Source: Escherichia coli (lineage in GTDB: Bacteria; Pseudomonadota; Gammaproteobacteria; Enterobacterales; Enterobacteriaceae). Taken from it: a stretch of DNA of 64,000 bases. The DNA lies in NCBI RefSeq assembly GCF_029227855.1, contig NZ_CP074356.1; one strand, given 5' to 3'. The notes beneath the pieces were generated by a model. It was not told where the DNA came from. It made no database searches and saw nothing but the letters and a program-made list of their open reading frames with translations. The translations under genes were made by a program, and so were the position numbers. Below, in pieces: positions 18,745 to 28,795 of this stretch (position 1 is its first letter; each line of letters begins with the position of its first letter).

Positions 18745-19263
18745 AGCACATCCTGATAATCCAACCGTGCAACACTTATGCTCATTTCATCATCAATCCG
18801 TAATCAAAACCGCTGACCTGGACGAGTTACGATGACCTGACAGAAGTATCAGACGTCTTCTGCGGTTTCTATGATAGAGCAATTCTGTGGCGGATATTAA
18901 GATAACGGGTATCTGTTCTTTAATGATGCCGCAAAAAATGGAAAGTTAAGAAAGCCTGGCGTGGTGAAAAAATACACTCGCCTCAATACTGGATATTTAA
19001 ACAGGTCTGAAGATGCTGTTACGATTAGGGTGCGGAAAAAGGAAGCGTAAATAAGAACAATCAAAAGTACGACGGCAATGGGTTGATTGACAAGGATATT
19101 TTTTAAGCTATGAATCAGCGCCATTTATCACAGAATAGACTTTTACTCTGAATAAATGGGAGGGTGACTTGCCTCAATATAATCCAGACTATAACATGCC
19201 TTATAGTCTTCGGAACATCATCGCGCGCTGGCGATGATTAATAGCTAATTGAGTAAGGCCAGG

Positions 19264-19959
19264 ATGTCAAACACGCCAATCGAGCTTAAAGGCAGTAGCT
19301 TCACTTTATCTGTGGTTCATCTGCATGAGGCAGAACCTAAGGTTATCCATCAGGCGCTGGAAGACAAAATCGCTCAGGCCCCCGCATTTTTAAAACATGC
19401 CCCCGTTGTACTCAACGTCAGTGCACTGGAAGACCCGGTAAACTGGTCAGCGATGCATAAGGCGGTTTCGGCAACCGGTTTGCGGGTTATTGGCGTAAGT
19501 GGCTGCAAAGATGCGCAACTTAAAGCCGAAATTGAAAAAATGGGGCTGCCTATCCTGACGGAAGGAAAGGAAAAAGCGCCGCGTCCAGCTCCCGCACCGC
19601 AGGCTCCAGCGCAAAATACAACGCCGGTCACAAAAACGCGTTTAATAGATACCCCGGTGCGTTCCGGTCAGCGTATTTATGCTCCACAATGTGATCTGAT
19701 TGTTACAAGCCACGTTAGCGCTGGGGCCGAATTGATTGCCGATGGTAACATTCATGTCTATGGCATGATGCGCGGTCGTGCGCTGGCAGGGGCAAGTGGT
19801 GACCGGGAAACGCAAATATTTTGCACGAACCTGATGGCGGAATTGGTGTCCATCGCAGGTGAATACTGGCTGAGTGATCAAATCCCAGCAGAATTTTATG
19901 GCAAAGCGGCGCGACTGCAGTTAGTCGAAAACGCTTTGACCGTTCAACCGTTAAATTGA
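19264..19959 (+). CDS. minC: septum site-determining protein MinC
   Basis: 231 aa from ATG at 19264 ([53 protein letters not shown]...). Confidence 0.94.
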
Positions 19960-19982
19960 TCCCTTTTTAACAAGGAATTTCT

Positions 19983-20795
19983 ATGGCACGCATTATTGTT
20001 GTTACTTCGGGCAAAGGGGGTGTTGGTAAGACAACCTCCAGCGCGGCCATCGCCACTGGTTTGGCCCAGAAGGGAAAGAAAACTGTCGTGATAGATTTTG
20101 ATATCGGCCTGCGTAATCTCGACCTGATTATGGGTTGCGAACGCCGGGTCGTTTACGATTTCGTCAACGTCATTCAGGGCGATGCAACGCTAAATCAGGC
20201 GTTAATTAAAGATAAGCGTACTGAAAATCTCTATATTCTTCCGGCATCGCAAACTCGCGATAAAGATGCCCTCACCCGTGAAGGGGTCGCCAAAGTTCTT
20301 GATGATCTGAAAGCGATGGACTTTGAATTTATTGTTTGCGACTCCCCGGCAGGGATTGAGACCGGTGCGCTAATGGCACTCTATTTTGCAGACGAAGCCA
20401 TTATTACCACCAACCCGGAAGTCTCCTCAGTACGCGACTCTGACCGTATTTTAGGCATTCTGGCGTCGAAATCACGCCGCGCAGAAAATGGCGAAGAGCC
20501 TATTAAAGAGCACCTGCTGTTAACGCGCTATAACCCAGGCCGCGTAAGCAGAGGTGACATGCTGAGCATGGAAGATGTGCTGGAGATCCTGCGCATCAAA
20601 CTCGTCGGCGTGATCCCAGAGGATCAATCAGTATTGCGCGCCTCTAACCAGGGTGAACCGGTCATTCTCGACATTAACGCCGATGCGGGTAAAGCCTACG
20701 CAGATACCGTAGAACGTCTGTTGGGAGAAGAACGTCCTTTCCGCTTCATTGAAGAAGAGAAGAAAGGCTTCCTCAAACGCTTGTTCGGAGGATAA
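19983..20795 (+). CDS. minD: septum site-determining ATPase MinD
   Basis: 270 aa, MARIIVVTSGKGGVGKTTSSAAIATGLAQKGKKTVVIDFDIGLRNLDL (deviant Walker A). Confidence 0.96.
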   Translation: MARIIVVTSGKGGVGKTTSSAAIATGLAQKGKKTVVIDFDIGLRNLDLIMGCERRVVYDFVNVIQGDATLNQALIKDKRTENLYILPASQTRDKDALTREGVAKVLDDLKAMDFEFIVCDSPAGIETGALMALYFADEAIITTNPEVSSVRDSDRILGILASKSRRAENGEEPIKEHLLLTRYNPGRVSRGDMLSMEDVLEILRIKLVGVIPEDQSVLRASNQGEPVILDINADAGKAYADTVERLLGEERPFRFIEEEKKGFLKRLFGG

Positions 20796-20798
20796 GTT

Positions 20799-21065
20799 AT
20801 GGCATTACTCGATTTCTTTCTCTCGCGGAAGAAAAACACGGCCAACATTGCAAAAGAACGGCTGCAGATTATTGTTGCTGAACGCCGTCGCAGCGATGCA
20901 GAACCGCATTATCTGCCGCAGTTGCGTAAAGATATTCTTGAGGTCATTTGTAAATACGTACAAATTGATCCTGAGATGGTAACCGTACAGCTTGAGCAAA
21001 AAGATGGCGATATTTCTATTCTTGAGCTGAACGTGACCTTGCCGGAAGCAGAAGAGCTGAAATAG
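20799..21065 (+). CDS. minE: cell division topological specificity factor MinE
   Basis: 88 aa, [31 protein letters not shown]... Confidence 0.96.
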
Positions 21066-21429: not shown

Positions 21430-24400
21430 TCAGAACGACCAGTTCGCACCAGCCACCGCGTTCCACGGGGATTCCACACCGGCACCATGGCTATACCCCA
21501 CCCCGAGATGCCCGCTTAACGAACTGCTGAATGAGGCTTTAATACCTGCCTGATATATTCCACGTCTGCCCGACAAATCATTGACAAAATTACCGTCATT
21601 ATTCACTTTCACCCGGTTATCATCGACAAATTCTTTGCGCACAGCCGCCTTCAGCCACGGCTCAACTTCCATGCCGTTCCCCAGACGCATGTTGTAACTC
21701 AGCGTTGCGCCCAGTTCACGATATATACTGCGGGTATCGACTGATTTCGATTCCATACCATTGGATAAATGATATTCGGGGTTATCAGCGGTGAACCCCG
21801 TTAACGATGCATACGGCGTCAGGTTCCAGTTACCATCGGTAAATCGCATCCCGGTTTCAATGTGACCGCCCAGCCCGTTGCTGCGATAACTGCCGTTGGC
21901 GGCTCCACCGCTGCTCATTTTACCGGCTACGTTACTTTCAAAGCGGTTCAGCTTCACGATACCGTCCAGATAGAAACCACTTTCATGTTCCCAACTGGCA
22001 TAGCCGCCCAGAGAATAACTGCCCACACTGCCATGACCTCCGCGATCAAAACCGATATGTGAATGGGAATAACCCATAAAAGCGCCCAGCGTGGCAATTC
22101 CTTCTGGAATATCATTACGGCTGTCGATCCCCACTGTCATTCCGATCAGCGTCTGCTCAAACCCGGCACCCGCATCGGTGGTGACATTATTACGGGTGTT
22201 ATACGTCGCCCCCCAGACATTATTGTTGTGTGGACTCGCTTTCATTATGTTCAACCGCTCGCGAATACTGTTTAGCTCAGCATCAAATACCAACGGTAAT
22301 GTTGCTGCCATATTGAGTACAGCTGCCGTAGAAGGCGTGATGCGTTTCTCCGGAACGGGTGTCGGCGTTGGATCGGGAGTCGGGTCTGGATTTGGATTTG
22401 GGTTTGGGTTCGGGTTCGGGTTCGGGTTCGGGTTCGGGTTTGGATTTGGATTCGGATTTGGGTTTGGATTTGGGTTTGGGTTCGGATTTGGGTTGACATC
22501 ATTAGTCAGGTTCCAGTTGCTGTTGCCGTCGCTTTTCAGGACATACTCATAGGTCCCAAGATCAACGAAACCACCGGTATTGCCCAGCGTAAACGACGCA
22601 TCCCCTCCCCCTGTTTTCACCAGCGTCATCGCATCGTCAGACTGAGGGCTGACGCCGGTATCCTGAACAAAGATTTTAAAATTACCAGTGGCATTGTTGT
22701 TGACGACCAGTTGATCGCCCCGGGAGCCTGCAATGTTGGTATGCAGGTAGAAATTACCGCTGCCGGAAAGTTCACTGGTGGTCAGCGTATTGTAGATACC
22801 GTTAGTTGTGGCAGGCGCTGATAAATAAACATCACCGTCGTTGAGTAGCAAACTGTTTACTCTATATTCGCAGTTGCTGGTGCCTGCACAGGAATTATTG
22901 CTGTTAAGCCAGACACTGCCCCGGCTGGCAGCCGTCAGGTCGGCAAGCGTCGTATCAACGCCATTGCCGATAGTGAATGTCGCGCTATCGGTAATCCGGA
23001 TCGCCCCTTCGAGTTTAACTGGCGTAACATTATCCCGTGGCGTCATTAACGACAGGCTTCCTGTCGCGCCACTGACCGATGCATCCGCCAGCGTACCTGC
23101 GTAGACGATTGCTGTCCCGCCAGCAACCTGGAGATCTTCTGCCCGGGCCAGAGCCTGAAACTCATCTTTTGACCGCCCAAGGGTATATTGCCCACCAGAG
23201 TTAACCTTTGTGGCGGAGTCCTGACCCAGGTTTTGCATTGCACCACCCTTGTCAACCGTGGAGTCACGGGCTTCGGTACCTGCTAATACCAATAAATTAC
23301 CGCCATTTTCCAGCAACATATTGGTCGCTAAATTGCTGGCAATGGAAAAGGTGCCGTACTGGTGCGTACCGCTGATTTCAATACCGTTAGCCGTGCTCGT
23401 CTGGAGAGCGGCACCGCTGTTCTGGACGATATCTGTCGCTTTGCCATTATCGTTGACTGTCAGCGTTCCGCCTTCATTGATCGTTGTTTTTATTGCCTCT
23501 CCGTTAGCTGAAACTGTTTGTATTCCGCCGTCGTTAATTGTTGTCTCATTTGCCACACCCTCGACGATTTGTTCACCGCCAGTGAGCGTCGTGCCTGTCG
23601 CAGTGGCTTTTGTTTTGACGATCTCCCGACCGCCCGCATTGACCTGTGTTTTGGCGGAAGTGGTGTCTGACTCCACGGTTAACACGCCGCCATTTGTCAG
23701 CAGGATATTGTTCGCCGCACCCTGCTCGATGCTGAACGCGACGCCATCAGCGCGTGTCCCTGTGACCCGCGTCGCCCTGGTGGTTGCAACCAACGCGCCC
23801 TGACTACTCTGCTGTATCCCCGTTGCGCTGCCTTTCTCCCGCACATCGAGTATGCCGCCATTGTTAAGTCTGGTGGTATATGCTACGGCCTCCTCGTGGA
23901 CAATCAGCTTACCGCCAGCATCAACGATGGTATCTACCGCCGAGGTTTGAGCTACGACCGTCAGTTGGCCGGTATTTTCCAGCACAACATGCTCAGCCCT
24001 GCCTCCGGTAATAGTGAAGTGAGATGACCTCTGGTATCCATCAATATCAGTCCCCGCGCCCGTGTTGGCAACTAAAGCACTCCCCGTGTCCAGGTAAACC
24101 CCATGTGCGATACCGCCGGTATCGACAATCAGCGTGCCTCCGGCACGAATATTGCTGCCAGTTGCCGTACCTCCTTTCTCAACAACCTGCTTGCTCCCGG
24201 AAGAGATATTTGTTGTGTCAGCTTTCCCGCCGCTCTTGATATTTTGCGTGCCACTGTTGATATTAGTTCCCGTAGCAATACCATGATTATAAATATTCTG
24301 TGTACCGCCATTAATTATGGTATTAGTCGCGTTCCCGGCAACATCCATGGCCCCGCCGTTATCTATTCGGGTCGCATCAGCTTTAGCATTCGTTAAAACT

Positions 24401-24780
24401 GACATTGTTCCTTTATCGTTAATTATCGTCCCTGTAGAAATTCCTCCCTCACTAATTGTCTGGCTGCCACCGTTAATGACTGTATTATTAGCCTGCCCCT
24501 GATAAGAGCCATGACCAGATACCTCTTGATGTCCACCAGTATCAATAACACTTCCATTAGAAATCCCGCCATATACCTCCTGATTGCCGTGATTGATGAT
24601 ATGAGCATTATTTGTTGTACCTCGTTCATCTACTCTTTGGCTGCCGTCTACAGTCTCATCATTTACAACGCCAATAACATTAGAAGTGAAGGCCGTCATC
24701 CCAGGCGGGGCATATATCATGGCAGCTATCAATAAGGAAAGTACTGAGCGGTGAAAATAATAGCGACTGATTCTGTTCAT
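21430..24780 (-). CDS. type Va autotransporter adhesin (AIDA-I/Ag43-like passenger, Asn-Pro repeat linker, C-terminal beta-barrel); apparently intact
   Basis: Extended autotransporter signal peptide MNRISRYYFHRSVLSLLIAAMIYAPPGMTA from the ATG at 24780 (GAGG 9 nt upstream); glycine-rich beta-helix passenger repeats; (NP)n-DPTPDPTPTPVP linker; C-terminus ...AGANWSF. Occupies the ymgG-minE interval where K-12 carries only short remnants (recalled). Confidence 0.85.
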   Translation of the reverse strand: MNRISRYYFHRSVLSLLIAAMIYAPPGMTAFTSNVIGVVNDETVDGSQRVDERGTTNNAHIINHGNQEVYGGISNGSVIDTGGHQEVSGHGSYQGQANNTVINGGSQTISEGGISTGTIINDKGTMSVLTNAKADATRIDNGGAMDVAGNATNTIINGGTQNIYNHGIATGTNINSGTQNIKSGGKADTTNISSGSKQVVEKGGTATGSNIRAGGTLIVDTGGIAHGVYLDTGSALVANTGAGTDIDGYQRSSHFTITGGRAEHVVLENTGQLTVVAQTSAVDTIVDAGGKLIVHEEAVAYTTRLNNGGILDVREKGSATGIQQSSQGALVATTRATRVTGTRADGVAFSIEQGAANNILLTNGGVLTVESDTTSAKTQVNAGGREIVKTKATATGTTLTGGEQIVEGVANETTINDGGIQTVSANGEAIKTTINEGGTLTVNDNGKATDIVQNSGAALQTSTANGIEISGTHQYGTFSIASNLATNMLLENGGNLLVLAGTEARDSTVDKGGAMQNLGQDSATKVNSGGQYTLGRSKDEFQALARAEDLQVAGGTAIVYAGTLADASVSGATGSLSLMTPRDNVTPVKLEGAIRITDSATFTIGNGVDTTLADLTAASRGSVWLNSNNSCAGTSNCEYRVNSLLLNDGDVYLSAPATTNGIYNTLTTSELSGSGNFYLHTNIAGSRGDQLVVNNNATGNFKIFVQDTGVSPQSDDAMTLVKTGGGDASFTLGNTGGFVDLGTYEYVLKSDGNSNWNLTNDVNPNPNPNPNPNPNPNPNPNPNPNPNPNPNPNPNPNPDPTPDPTPTPVPEKRITPSTAAVLNMAATLPLVFDAELNSIRERLNIMKASPHNNNVWGATYNTRNNVTTDAGAGFEQTLIGMTVGIDSRNDIPEGIATLGAFMGYSHSHIGFDRGGHGSVGSYSLGGYASWEHESGFYLDGIVKLNRFESNVAGKMSSGGAANGSYRSNGLGGHIETGMRFTDGNWNLTPYASLTGFTADNPEYHLSNGMESKSVDTRSIYRELGATLSYNMRLGNGMEVEPWLKAAVRKEFVDDNRVKVNNDGNFVNDLSGRRGIYQAGIKASFSSSLSGHLGVGYSHGAGVESPWNAVAGANWSF
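22350..22494 (-). repeat. in-frame tandem hexanucleotide repeat (ggttYg/ggattt units) encoding (Asn-Pro)~17 followed by DPTPDPTPTPVP; coordinates approximate
   Basis: Visible run gggtttgggttcgggttcgggttc... on the plus strand; translates on the minus strand to NPNPNP... inside the autotransporter. Confidence 0.8.
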
Positions 24781-25392
24781 AAATTTCATCCTCTGAAAAA
24801 TGAATACTGAGTACTGAGTAGCGTCTAAGTAACCTAAGCTCGGCTGCAACATCAGCCCGCAGGCACCAGACCAGGGGATTCATCCTGAAGAGACAGCGCA
24901 GGTGTATTGTGTTCACCGCTCACCAAAGACATCATGATGAAATGATGATATCCCGCATAATAAAGAGGCATTTTTTAAACGCAATGCGCTGAAGTGTAGT
25001 TGGATAAAAAATCACTCTTTTCAGATAATACTGTCGTACGCTTATCTTTCGACAATGAGGCCGTCGGCAAAATAAAATGACTAATGTAATCGTTGCTGAT
25101 GAATATCTTCTGCTCACATAAAAATCACACAATAATATTGATAAATCAGATTATCTTACCTTTACAACATTGCGTTAACAGTCAATGACACTTCTTGAAT
25201 AAAAATATTGTCAATCAATGAGTTATTCCTCATTTAAGATTATTCTCATTCACGTAAAAAACATAATTCCTATCATCACAGCCACGCTCATTTTGAATTA
25301 TCTGAATAATAGCGAGCGTTCTTTAGTTAAGCAGATCTTAATTGAAGACGAAATTATTGTGTGTGCAACTTACTTAATACCGGACATCTAAG

Positions 25393-25737
25393 TTGAAGAA
25401 AAAAATACTTGCCTTCGGGCTTATCTCAGCATTGTTCTGCTCCACGCCAGCGATGGCGGATATGAACCGCACCACGAAAGGTGCATTGCTAGGCGCAGGC
25501 GTTGGTTTACTTACTGGCAATGGTGTTAATGGCGTACTGAAAGGTGCAGCTGTTGGCGCTGGTGTTGGTGCAGTAACAGAAAAAGGCCGCGACGGTAAAA
25601 ATGCGCGTAAAGGTGCAAAAGTGGGTGCCGCCGTTGGTGCTGTCACTGGCGTTCTGACCGGCAATGGCCTCGAAGGGGCGATTAAAGGTGCCGTGATTGG
25701 CGGTACGGGTGGTGCAATTCTGGGTAAAATGAAATAA
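25393..25737 (+). CDS. ymgG: glycine-zipper small outer-membrane/periplasmic protein YmgG
   Basis: 114 aa, signal peptide then repeated GxxxG/GAxVGA glycine zipper; TTG start as reported by the track. Confidence 0.78.
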
Positions 25738-25746
25738 GGAATGATG

Positions 25747-26076
25747 ATGAAAAAATTTGCTTTACTGGCGGGTCTGTTTGTTTTCGCACCAATGACCTGG
25801 GCGCAGGACTACAATATTAAAAACGGTTTGCCGTCAGAAACCTATATTACTTGCGCAGAAGCCAACGAAATGGCAAAAACTGACAGCGCACAGGTTGCAG
25901 AAATTGTTGCGGTAATGGGTAATGCCAGCGTTGCCAGCCGTGATTTAAAAATTGAGCAATTTCCGGAACTAAGCGCCAAAGTGGTAGAAAAACTGAATCA
26001 GGTTTGCGCTAAAGACCCGCAAATGCTGTTGATCACGGCAATTGATGACACTATGCGTGCTATCGGCAAAAAATAA
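25747..26076 (+). CDS. ymgD: periplasmic protein YmgD
   Basis: 109 aa from ATG at 25747 (MKKFALLAGLFVFAPMTWAQDYNIKNG...). Confidence 0.8.
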   Translation: MKKFALLAGLFVFAPMTWAQDYNIKNGLPSETYITCAEANEMAKTDSAQVAEIVAVMGNASVASRDLKIEQFPELSAKVVEKLNQVCAKDPQMLLITAIDDTMRAIGKK

Positions 26077-26131: not shown

Positions 26132-28795
26132 TCAGAACTTATATTTCAGGCCCACCATCACTGCGGTGTCATTGTAGCCATTATCACCCAGCTGCACGCC
26201 CACATTACCCCAGACGCTGGCCGCCGGATTCAGATTGCCATTTACGCCAAGTTTAATTTCCCCCAGATTACGCGCCCCGTCTTGTTCAACTTTCACACCG
26301 TTCATTGAGACAGCAAAATCTTTACTGTTATGGATCCAGTTCATTTCAACAAAAGGTTCAAAGTCGTCACCGTGCGGACCGCTGTTTTTCTCCTGAGTAC
26401 GAATAAAGGTACGGAAGCCGAGTCGGGTCTGGATGTTGTTATTTGCGTCATTCTCAATACGTGAGCCATTGGCTTCCGTGTGCGCATTATGATCGACGCC
26501 CATCCAGATAGCCTGTGCCTGTGGCTGGAAGATCCACGTATATTTCGCCGCTTCCAGACCAAAGGATTTATTCAGGGCAAAACCGTAACCCGCTTCCAGC
26601 GAGACGGTTGCACCTTTCGCGCTATAGGATTCATAGGCTAACTCATCCCCTTTCACCGAGTTTTTAAACCAGCTATATTGCGCCCAGGCGTCAATGTATG
26701 CGCCTTTTTTACTGATGTCATCGGCAAACCAGGTGGCATACAGCCCTGCGCTATAGCCTCTGACACTCCCTTTCGAACGATAATCCGACACGCTGGAATG
26801 AGTTGAGTTGTAGTCGCGGGCATAACCAGCCATCACTCCCAAACGCCAACTGTCACTGTCGGTAAAACCACCGGTTAACAGATCGGCCCCTAACTGTGAG
26901 ACGTAGCGATGCGAGGTCGTTCTCAACTGTCCGTTGCTGTCACGCCAGGCATTATGCCCGCCAATTTGACGTAGCCAAAGTCGGCTTGAACGCTCCTGTT
27001 CAGTTACAGGATCGATGTAACGCGTTTCACCTGCACGGTCGTTCAGACGCATAACAAAAAGAGTGTTAGCGGCTGCCAGGTTGGCGACGTAACTTCCAGC
27101 TTCGGGGCGCAGAACGGGGGTAGGCGTTTCTGTTGATTCTGAATTTCCCTCTGAGCTGTTATCCTCCTCATTCACTGACTGATAACTTGTCAAATACCAG
27201 TTTTTGCCTTGTTGTTTTAGTTGATATTCGAAAGCTCCAGCTGCAATCCTTGCATCACCTTGTCTGAAGGCATCTGCTGGAGATTCATCGCCATTCACAG
27301 TTATGAGTTCGATCCCATTTAGCGTGGCCGCGCCGCTTCCTCCAGCATTTTTCACATAGACGGTAGTTGAACCCGAAGTATTGCCCTCAACAATAAGTCT
27401 GTCAGTAGCCGATTTATCATCACCTAATACGGTGCGGGTATTAAGCTGACCATTATTACCGACATAATTACCTTTTACGGTTAACGTTTTTCCCTGGGTA
27501 AATGTTTGACCATCATCATACGAAAGATTGATAATACTGTCTGAATTAGTCAGATGGATAACAACGGAGTCATCTTTCATATTCCAGATTGTGTTTTCTG
27601 AAAGCTTCAGTGTAGTTGTGCCGCTAACGAGTTTAGTCGCTCCATTTAGAGTAGAGTCGGACGAAATTATGTTTAAGCCACCTCCAGTATTATTAACCAG
27701 AATATTATTACCAGGCGTGATAATACTTCGATTAAGGATGCTTACATCCGTTGTAGTTTTGTTAACATCAATACTATCCAAAGCACTTGAAAGTTCGACA
27801 CTTGATAGTGCTATTTTGGCTTGAGAATCGATATTTGATGCATCAATTGATATTCCTTTATCTTGTTCTGATACCGCGGTGACATTGGAAAAAAATAACT
27901 CTCCACCATTGTATATTTTTGCAATGGGGGCTTTAGTGCCTTTTGTTGTAATAGAACTATTTTTTATATCAATGTTACCTTGTCGAATAGCAACTGCATA
28001 ACTTCCATGCTCCCCGGTTTCAAGTGCCACATAATCTAAATTAATATATGCTTTTTCCCCATTAGCATAAGCACCATAGCTATTAGTGCCATTAGTTGTT
28101 ATGGAACCACCATTCATTTTTAAATCAGCACGGCTAATAACTTCGTAACTGTTAGAATCACTAACTTCATCATCTACAGCATCGACACATGTTCGAGACT
28201 CTCCAGAACTTGAACATGCAAGAACACCTACTGCATTTTCCCCATAGGTAACAATGTTCGTTTTATCTGTGGTTTCAAGACGGGTGTTATTTTCCACAAT
28301 CCCAGAATCATTAACCTGACTTAAAAGTCCCGCTGAATATGCCCCCCTCGTCTCGACTGAATTATCACCATTCATAACGATGGTGCCACCAAATTCACTG
28401 ACTACTGCGCTGGCTGTTATCCCTCCATTAACATCTTGGTTATTTCCTTTGTCAGATACGCTTCCAGAGGTCTTAATACCGCTATCGCTTATATATAATA
28501 CTTTGTTATGACTATCAACAGAAATACCATAAGATCCATCACCACTAGTCATCACACTGGCATTATTTATATATCCAGTTACACCGTCATCCACTTTCAC
28601 AGCATGGCTTTCGTCTTTAGTGGTTAGATACTCTCCATTACTTATCGAATTATTATCTTTGATTTCAATCGGCGATTCTTCATCAGTTATATAGGAAAGT
28701 ATACTATAATCATCCAACAATTGTGTTGCATATGCATTACCCACCGCCAAAGCAATAAGTCCTAAACTAAACCCGGGGAGTTTTTTCAGTTTCAT
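26132..28795 (-). CDS. ycgH: type Va autotransporter, apparently intact (counterpart of the K-12 ycgH pseudogene by position)
   Basis: 887-aa ORF with signal peptide MKLKKLPGFSLGLIALAVGNAYA and terminal beta-barrel ending ...VGLKYKF; located between ymgD and ymgF. Confidence 0.8.
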   Translation of the reverse strand: MKLKKLPGFSLGLIALAVGNAYATQLLDDYSILSYITDEESPIEIKDNNSISNGEYLTTKDESHAVKVDDGVTGYINNASVMTSGDGSYGISVDSHNKVLYISDSGIKTSGSVSDKGNNQDVNGGITASAVVSEFGGTIVMNGDNSVETRGAYSAGLLSQVNDSGIVENNTRLETTDKTNIVTYGENAVGVLACSSSGESRTCVDAVDDEVSDSNSYEVISRADLKMNGGSITTNGTNSYGAYANGEKAYINLDYVALETGEHGSYAVAIRQGNIDIKNSSITTKGTKAPIAKIYNGGELFFSNVTAVSEQDKGISIDASNIDSQAKIALSSVELSSALDSIDVNKTTTDVSILNRSIITPGNNILVNNTGGGLNIISSDSTLNGATKLVSGTTTLKLSENTIWNMKDDSVVIHLTNSDSIINLSYDDGQTFTQGKTLTVKGNYVGNNGQLNTRTVLGDDKSATDRLIVEGNTSGSTTVYVKNAGGSGAATLNGIELITVNGDESPADAFRQGDARIAAGAFEYQLKQQGKNWYLTSYQSVNEEDNSSEGNSESTETPTPVLRPEAGSYVANLAAANTLFVMRLNDRAGETRYIDPVTEQERSSRLWLRQIGGHNAWRDSNGQLRTTSHRYVSQLGADLLTGGFTDSDSWRLGVMAGYARDYNSTHSSVSDYRSKGSVRGYSAGLYATWFADDISKKGAYIDAWAQYSWFKNSVKGDELAYESYSAKGATVSLEAGYGFALNKSFGLEAAKYTWIFQPQAQAIWMGVDHNAHTEANGSRIENDANNNIQTRLGFRTFIRTQEKNSGPHGDDFEPFVEMNWIHNSKDFAVSMNGVKVEQDGARNLGEIKLGVNGNLNPAASVWGNVGVQLGDNGYNDTAVMVGLKYKF

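Follow-up and report, generated by a model that had tools for sequence, protein, structure and literature searches.

The window analysed here is a stretch of 64,000 nucleotides (nt) of Escherichia coli DNA (contig NZ_CP074356.1), and the subject of this report is an autotransporter gene at its min locus, together with the array of hexanucleotide repeats that encodes an asparagine–proline tract inside this gene. The complete coding sequence (CDS), of the YpjA/EhaD type, occupies positions 21430..24780 on the minus strand and consists of 1116 codons and a stop. Both the listing of open reading frames (ORFs) and the reading of the codons give a single uninterrupted minus-strand frame with no internal stop. 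The genes minC, minD and minE lie on one side of it (19249..21065, plus strand) and ymgI, ymgG and ymgD on the other (25218..26076, plus strand), and these coordinates confirm the location between ymgG and minE that was given in the original prediction, an earlier reading of the letters of this DNA without database searches.

The same prediction had called the gene intact with 1116 amino acids (aa), and this too holds. The start codon is the ATG at 24780 (MNRISRYYF...), which is preceded at a distance of 9 nt by a ribosome-binding site, GAGGA, read from the sequence at 24789..24793 on the minus strand. Length and start are the same as those of the 3351-nt CDS annotated by PGAP in the closest genome, strain Z0117EC0032, and the PGAP start is identical in all related genomes that were fetched. 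The longest ORF from the first ATG is larger, 21430..24852 on the minus strand, and would encode 1140 aa. This longer reading was rejected, as its frame is open only in strains that carry a 7-nt tandem duplication, TACTCAG-TACTCAG-TATTCA, which the program TRF detected in the leader at 24801..24820 on the minus strand, 21–40 nt upstream of the start codon. TACTCAG is present in two copies in the window and in strains Ch1 and VCSW5, and in one copy in MEI003, HYM1 and GN25 and upstream of K-12 ypjA. Since the extra 24 codons depend on this strain-specific duplication, 1116 aa is the correct length of the gene product.

Domain searches bear out the expected organization of a type Va autotransporter, with the Pfam domains AIDA, Pertactin and Autotransporter in the canonical order and with NCBIfam and PDB relatives that agree. 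A Sec signal peptide is predicted at aa 1–29/30 (MNRISRYYFHRSVLSLLIAAMIYAPPGMT/A; 24694..24780, on the minus strand like all parts of the gene described below), by inspection and by likeness to K-12 YpjA. To the eye, the N-terminus consists of a basic region and a hydrophobic core and is near-identical to that of K-12 YpjA, for which a signal peptide of 29 aa is listed (PMC13101318). A β-helical passenger of AIDA-type repeats follows at aa 94–530 (23191..24501), with six matches to Pfam PF16168 at E≤0.001, two weaker matches and six copies of the NCBIfam repeat TIGR04415. Its PDB relatives are the passengers of Ag43 and TibA, at about 1e-28 (TibA, 4Q1Q, 1.2e-28). The curated models for Ag43 and AIDA-I were not reached by the protein (NF033177, 185 bits against 1200; NF033176, 159 bits against 1200), and the likeness to these families is, as far as such scores tell, one of repeat type alone.

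The C-terminal part of the passenger is a pertactin-type junction or autochaperone domain at aa 641–759 (22504..22860; Pfam PF03212, 1.3e-46, full model coverage), and residues 390–534 of pertactin (1DAB) align to aa 616–760 of the window protein at 1.2e-16. The C-terminal β-barrel translocator comprises aa 855–1116 (21433..22218). It is matched by Pfam PF03797 at aa 855–1094 (1.3e-45), by NCBIfam TIGR01414 (8e-97, 325 bits against a cut-off of 16) and by the BrkA translocator, and it ends in an aromatic residue (...NWSF), as is characteristic of the class. The passenger and its autochaperone would be connected to the barrel by an α-helix that plugs the pore, placed at aa ~811–850 (EKRITPSTAAVLNMAATLPLVFDAELNSIRERLNIMK...; 22231..22350), with boundaries derived from the PDB alignments, in which chain 7AKV_G of Vag8 aligns with aa 808–1115 and the BrkA translocator 3QQ2 with aa 834–1116 (1.3e-23). 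As these boundaries are set by solved relatives, the X-Pro tract at aa 763–810 can be placed between the last folded domain of the passenger and the pore helix with its barrel. Matches to the circumsporozoite protein in the PDB, which has NANP repeats, and of aa 763–812 to the NCBIfam model SslE were dismissed as due to low complexity and not to homology.

Within the X-Pro tract, 18 head-to-tail AAY-CCR hexamers encode (Asn-Pro)18 at aa 763–798 (22387..22494; codon reading and TRF), with AAC or AAT for asparagine and CCA or CCG for proline. A tail of six further hexamers (in order GACCCG, ACTCCC, GATCCA, ACGCCG, ACACCC and GTTCCG; 22351..22386) encodes the sequence DPTPDPTPTPVP at aa 799–810. 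The whole tract thus has 24 X-Pro hexamers over 22351..22494, or 48 residues, of which (AAY-CCR)18 contributes 36. The original prediction was right about the presence of the array and slightly off in its counts, which had been about 20 hexamers and about 17 Asn-Pro units. The unit length is a multiple of three and the array contains perfect sub-runs: allele comparison places its hypervariable core at 22399..22440, where (AACCCG)5 (22411..22440) is followed by (AACCCA)2 (22399..22410). TRF scored the array at 121 and 140, and a pattern of four consecutive AAYCCR units was matched 15 times in the window and 0 times in 100 shuffles. Terminator-like stems within the array were set aside as artefacts of the repeat itself.

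For a survey of length variation, a repeat-deleted probe of 473 nt was used, which contains both flanks without the 18 Asn-Pro units, and the span of its match was read for each genome. Among 60 genomes whose flanks are 99.6–99.8% identical, the spans ranged from 521 to 635 nt, equivalent to 8–27 Asn-Pro units, and all 60 fit whole 6-nt steps. An array of 23 units was the most frequent (28 genomes), followed by 22 (14 genomes), 21 (six), 20 (four), 24 (three) and 25 units (two), while 8, 18 and 27 units were found in one genome each. In lineages further away, arrays of 16, 19, 32 and 33 units occur, and their internal patterns are different. The 13 alleles of which the sequence was read (8, 16, 18, 19, 20, 21, 22, 23, 24, 25, 27, 32 and 33 units) likewise all differ in 6-nt steps. 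Records ES1 and 'ST38', which apparently represent one strain sequenced twice and differ in size by 6 bp, both have a span of 617 nt, and several other isolates that are likely related to each other also agree in span.

Ten alleles fetched from the closest clade form an ordered series, which in unit letters reads abaacabcc-(AACCCG)5-12-(AACCCA)2-4-cc. The units at the 5' side (abaacabcc) and at the 3' side (cc) are fixed, and just the two perfect runs vary; the exception is a 25-unit allele in which one AACCCG unit is interspersed. The X-Pro tail has a constant length in all min-locus and ypjA alleles that were read, and its sequence is conserved except for a D/E change and one synonymous change in some alleles. 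Close strains thus differ by whole units within perfect runs, and judged by these alleles the hexamer array is a genuine in-frame variable-number tandem repeat (VNTR). With their differences confined to the (AACCCG)n and (AACCCA)n runs, the alleles carry the signature expected of replication slippage, which is the probable source of the change in length. Two outcomes had been named beforehand as fatal to the original prediction, a repeat of invariant length or an interrupted ORF, and neither was found: the repeat that had been proposed to change its length in frame does vary among near-identical genomes, and the ORF is uninterrupted.

The gene is already known to RefSeq, where full-length copies at the min locus carry the name 'ypjA: adhesin-like autotransporter YpjA/EhaD'. 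One residue, T55A, separates the window protein from that of strain Z0117EC0032 (WP_135155397.1), and the exact 1116-aa sequence had no match in a collection of 15 billion proteins. In agreement with the RefSeq name, the window gene is 93.2% identical to K-12 ypjA at the nucleotide level over 3321 aligned positions; no NCBIfam equivalog model for YpjA/EhaD turned up in the profile search of the window protein. K-12 YpjA has 1526 aa, and the window protein is 410 aa shorter and lacks two blocks of the YpjA passenger (217 and 199 aa). Across genomes, ypjA-locus matches to the window gene are ~92% identical, with ~1.2 kb extra in ypjA. Nucleotide identity to ypjA is 80–88% in the first 900 nt and 95–99% over most of the remainder, the linker tract aside.

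The true ypjA adjoins the island genes yfjZ/ypjF in a K-12-type genome, whereas the window gene stands in the chromosomal backbone between minE and ymgI. Since the loci differ and a second match is usual in genomes with a min-locus copy, the window gene is a paralogue of ypjA rather than its orthologue, and by sequence and position the min-locus gene is a second YpjA/EhaD copy that belongs to the backbone. The two proteins have the same domain order and are alike throughout the N-terminus, autochaperone, pore helix and barrel, and the likeness of the genes includes ~395 nt of upstream sequence. They differ in the linker, which is a homogeneous (NP)n of 8–33 units in the min-locus gene and a heterogeneous succession of Lys-, Asn-, Asp- and Ile-Pro in ypjA. 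The K-12 ypjA linker, KPNPDPIPNPKPDPKPDPKPDPNPKPDPTPDPTPTPVP, has heterogeneous codons and is nearly constant, with most spans at 545–557 nt. In O157:H7, the ypjA/ehaD linker varies by 12-nt units that encode Lys-Pro-Asp-Pro, strain OK1 having two units more than SS17. The literature searched contained no description of the backbone paralogue as distinct from ypjA or of its hexamer VNTR, and a search on length variation of proline-rich repeats in autotransporters found nothing specific.

The distribution of the gene was examined in 5,426 complete E. coli genomes, in 5,421 of which the locus was matched. A blastn comparison with a B/K-12-type genome showed that such genomes have lost 3,042 bp, corresponding to 21775..24816 of the window. 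The deletion ends inside the 7-nt duplication (24816/24817) and takes away the ribosome-binding site and start codon together with the passenger and the greater part of the barrel; what is left of the gene is its final 345 bp. The statement in the original prediction that K-12 holds just small remnants at this site is hereby borne out for the B/K-12-type genome, in which a 344-bp barrel pseudogene is annotated ('autotransporter outer membrane beta-barrel domain-containing protein'). We take this remnant to be the pseudogene named ycgI in K-12. The min-locus gene extends past the deletion endpoint in 712 of the 5,426 genomes, and ~445 records contain the passenger-coding part at an identity of at least 95% (276 at ≥99% and 169 at 95–99%).

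Decay has also taken other forms. In the O157-like E. coli strain 124 (L014, 4730..6737), the min-locus gene is reduced to a barrel fragment of 753 nt that abuts IS1203, and this truncation is a route of loss independent of and distinct from the K-12-type deletion. In the same strain, ompT and other foreign genes stand where the ymg genes are normally found. The gene of VCSW5, which has the second-longest array (32 units), is frameshifted upstream of the repeat, and that of GN25 has an in-frame deletion of 147 aa inside the passenger and encodes a protein of 965 aa. In view of these several distinct routes of decay, we take the gene as ancestral to the site and subject to repeated loss. Another autotransporter gene, ycgH, lies at a distance of 1.3 kb (26132..28795, minus strand); it is intact in the window, encodes 887 aa and is annotated 'autotransporter YcgH' by RefSeq in the closest genome, and its counterpart in B/K-12-type genomes is a pseudogene with both a frameshift and an internal stop. 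With ycgH and the YpjA/EhaD copy both intact, the window strain keeps both autotransporters of the min–ymg region.

The spacer between the gene and ymgI (24781..25217) has a G+C content of 38%. About 395 nt of it (24781..25175, minus strand) are shared with the paralogue, as ypjA-locus matches reach position 25175 of the window, and the counterpart on the ypjA side lies at 6092..about 6480 of a K-12-type ypjA record (L002). The upstream region contains annotated small ORFs, ymgJ and one for a 39-aa 'hypothetical protein', and the 39-aa ORF has an annotated counterpart upstream of ypjA. It thus appears that the gene was duplicated along with a long conserved leader or promoter region. A sequence scan gave candidate sigma-70-like promoter sites at 25178–25150 and 25052–25025 on the minus strand.

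We consider it highly probable that the min-locus gene encodes an intact type Va autotransporter adhesin, as a second YpjA/EhaD copy, and that slippage varies its Asn-Pro stalk without loss of frame. This reading draws together the intactness of the gene, its domain order, the paralogy, the deletion in other lineages and the 6-nt polymorphism within perfect runs, and it implies that the gene would be expressed, that its product would be displayed at the cell surface and act as an adhesin, and that stalk length could influence its reach past lipopolysaccharide (LPS) or capsule. According to established autotransporter biology, the protein would be exported by the Sec system by means of its N-terminal signal peptide, after which the BAM complex would insert the 12-stranded C-terminal barrel into the outer membrane and the α-helix at aa ~811–850 would plug the pore. 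The passenger would emerge C-terminus first, with the pertactin-type autochaperone folding first, and the β-helix of AIDA repeats would remain attached at the surface and promote adhesion or biofilm formation, as has been reported for YpjA and EhaD. In reviews, YfaL, YpjA and YcgV are given a part in initial adhesion and in the formation of biofilms (PMC3796261), ehaD is among the autotransporter genes of Shiga toxin-producing E. coli that are associated with biofilm formation (PMC4076661), and YpjA has been grouped with biofilm-forming autotransporter adhesins and suggested as a possible self-associating autotransporter (PMC9289746).

The 48-residue X-Pro tract, which would extend from the end of the autochaperone (aa 760) to the start of the pore helix (~811), presumably forms an extended, non-globular stalk or spacer just outside the mouth of the barrel. 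Slippage in (AACCCG)n and (AACCCA)n would add or remove whole units, with two residues gained or lost per event, and since whole 6-nt units are involved the length of the stalk can change without loss of frame. Strains would thereby come to carry stalks of 8–33 Asn-Pro units. It is plausible that such changes of the spacer alter the reach of the adhesin or its antigenicity.

Variation in a low-complexity region may be suspected to arise from assembly or sequencing, the more so as repeats are error-prone in some long-read assemblies and the gene of VCSW5 is annotated as frameshifted. We regard this as very unlikely to explain the length differences, each of which is an exact multiple of 6 nt and which together form an ordered series with changes in perfect runs alone; ES1 and 'ST38', and also several other likely related isolates, agree in length. 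The VCSW5 frameshift can be located upstream of the repeat, since the frame is identical on both sides of the array. A real but different origin would be exchange with the ypjA paralogue or other alleles, through recombination or gene conversion. Most genomes with a min-locus copy also carry ypjA (two places per record), and the 95–99% identity of the 3' two-thirds of both genes makes conversion physically possible. However, the units typical of the ypjA linker (Lys-, Asp- and Ile-Pro, with AAA, AAG and GAC codons) occur in none of the min-locus alleles, and within the clade it is homogeneous runs alone that change, in single-unit steps, so that we give this origin only a slight chance. The least credible of all is that the array serves as an on/off switch, a strict contingency locus. 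A simple-sequence repeat inside the gene of a surface protein might call such a switch to mind, but with a unit of 6 nt and all sampled alleles in frame phase variation is ruled out; the sole out-of-frame copy of the gene, that of VCSW5, is broken outside the repeat, and the upstream duplication of 7 nt is polymorphic with two states and does not form an array.

A more serious alternative accepts both the identity of the gene and the slippage, and takes the gene for a cryptic adhesin gene in decay, with a number of Asn-Pro units that is neutral mutational noise and has no bearing on the function or exposure of the adhesin. We judge the chance that this is so as just short of even. Several observations weigh against a functional stalk and in favour of such neutrality. 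Independent routes have led to loss of the gene from most genomes, and this decay in most of the species argues for weak selection, under which variation in stalk length may be phenotypically neutral. The distribution of alleles is broad. Furthermore, AT-richness upstream is a common trait of silenced autotransporter genes in E. coli, and the 38% G+C of the region upstream of the min-locus gene fits a silenced, cryptic gene. On the other side, 13 of 13 sequenced alleles and 60 of 60 spans are in frame, and the X-Pro linker as such is kept in both paralogues, although both facts are compatible with a neutral length all the same. At the other extreme, the (Asn-Pro)n tract might act as a graded length dial, in which selection matches the reach of the adhesin to the thickness of O-antigen or capsule, or varies an exposed repetitive epitope. 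With about 0.3 nm per residue if extended, stalks of 16–66 residues would measure roughly 5 to 20 nm. We consider this proposal improbable.

The reading of the gene as an intact adhesin with a slippage-prone stalk can be compared with systems known from other proteins. TibA, a self-associating autotransporter of enterotoxigenic E. coli, is a distant relative that has, like the window protein, a passenger of AIDA-type repeats (4Q1Q), and its proline-rich domain (residues 627–677), flanked by the junction region and the membrane domain (PMC3835316), is a spacer at the same place as the X-Pro tract. Glycosylation and self-association are documented for TibA. No copy-number polymorphism of the TibA proline-rich domain was reported in the TibA literature that was consulted. 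Pertactin of Bordetella shares with the window protein the pertactin-type C-terminal passenger domain (1DAB). Short proline-containing repeats (GGXXP and PQP) vary in number among its alleles, which makes it a classic example of an autotransporter with in-frame repeat polymorphism. The pertactin repeats have another sequence and unit length, are of immunological relevance, and lie within the structured passenger or next to it.

Hexanucleotide VNTRs as such are not new to E. coli either. The generic loci used for multiple-locus VNTR analysis (GECM-7/10, loci CVN001–CVN017), several of which have 6-bp units like the Asn-Pro array, vary between and within sequence types, including ST38 (PMC3407997). 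As ST38 isolates vary at CVN016, it was suggestive that the array could be this locus. The primers of CVN001–CVN017 (PMC8143711), that is 18 of the scheme's 20 with the CCR001 pair left out, were searched with up to three mismatches and had no match in the window, in the K-12-type ypjA locus or in the 44-kb L008 region. Consequently, the array is not one of the CVN typing loci, and CVN016 was rejected as its identity.

Two further features of the window were recorded. An insertion sequence of the IS200C type is present in the ycgB–fadR intergenic region, at about 8937..9641. Strain Z0117EC0032, which is otherwise 99–99.6% identical, lacks IS200C at ycgB–fadR and has a copy beside icd, where the window (~35908) has none. 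Since the IS200C sites differ in this way, the element appears to have moved recently between close relatives. Between cvrA and dadX, an ORF of 478 aa (3083..4519, plus strand), annotated as hypothetical, has a leucine-rich repeat (LRR) region that resembles the LRR domains of SlrP and SspH2, two type III effectors (NCBIfam, 5.5e-22 and 1.2e-17, both far below the cut-offs; Pfam LRR_4). Domain searches detected no E3-ligase domain in it, and it contains tandem repeats of its own, 11 copies of a 12-nt unit at 3408–3542 and four copies of a 9-nt unit at 4249–4284.

None of this overturns what was known, since surface proteins with in-frame repeat polymorphism and autotransporters with proline-rich spacers are both familiar, and the min-locus gene with its array is a real but ordinary kind of feature. 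The main gain is that annotation is tidied up. Counts of 'ypjA' in adhesin surveys and pipelines merge two loci, the island copy and the backbone copy at the min locus, the latter of which is kept at least partly in 13% of complete genomes and with its full passenger in about 8%. Within clones such as ST38, the Asn-Pro array might find use as an additional VNTR marker. If the tract were indeed a length dial, it would represent an analogue-type contingency locus in E. coli as well as a typing marker of high resolution, for example for ST38. Whatever the role of its length in nature, the array provides a clean natural series of stalks of 8–33 units on proteins that are otherwise near-identical, and such a series is well suited for testing whether the length of a spacer controls the exposure of short autotransporter adhesins through LPS or capsule.

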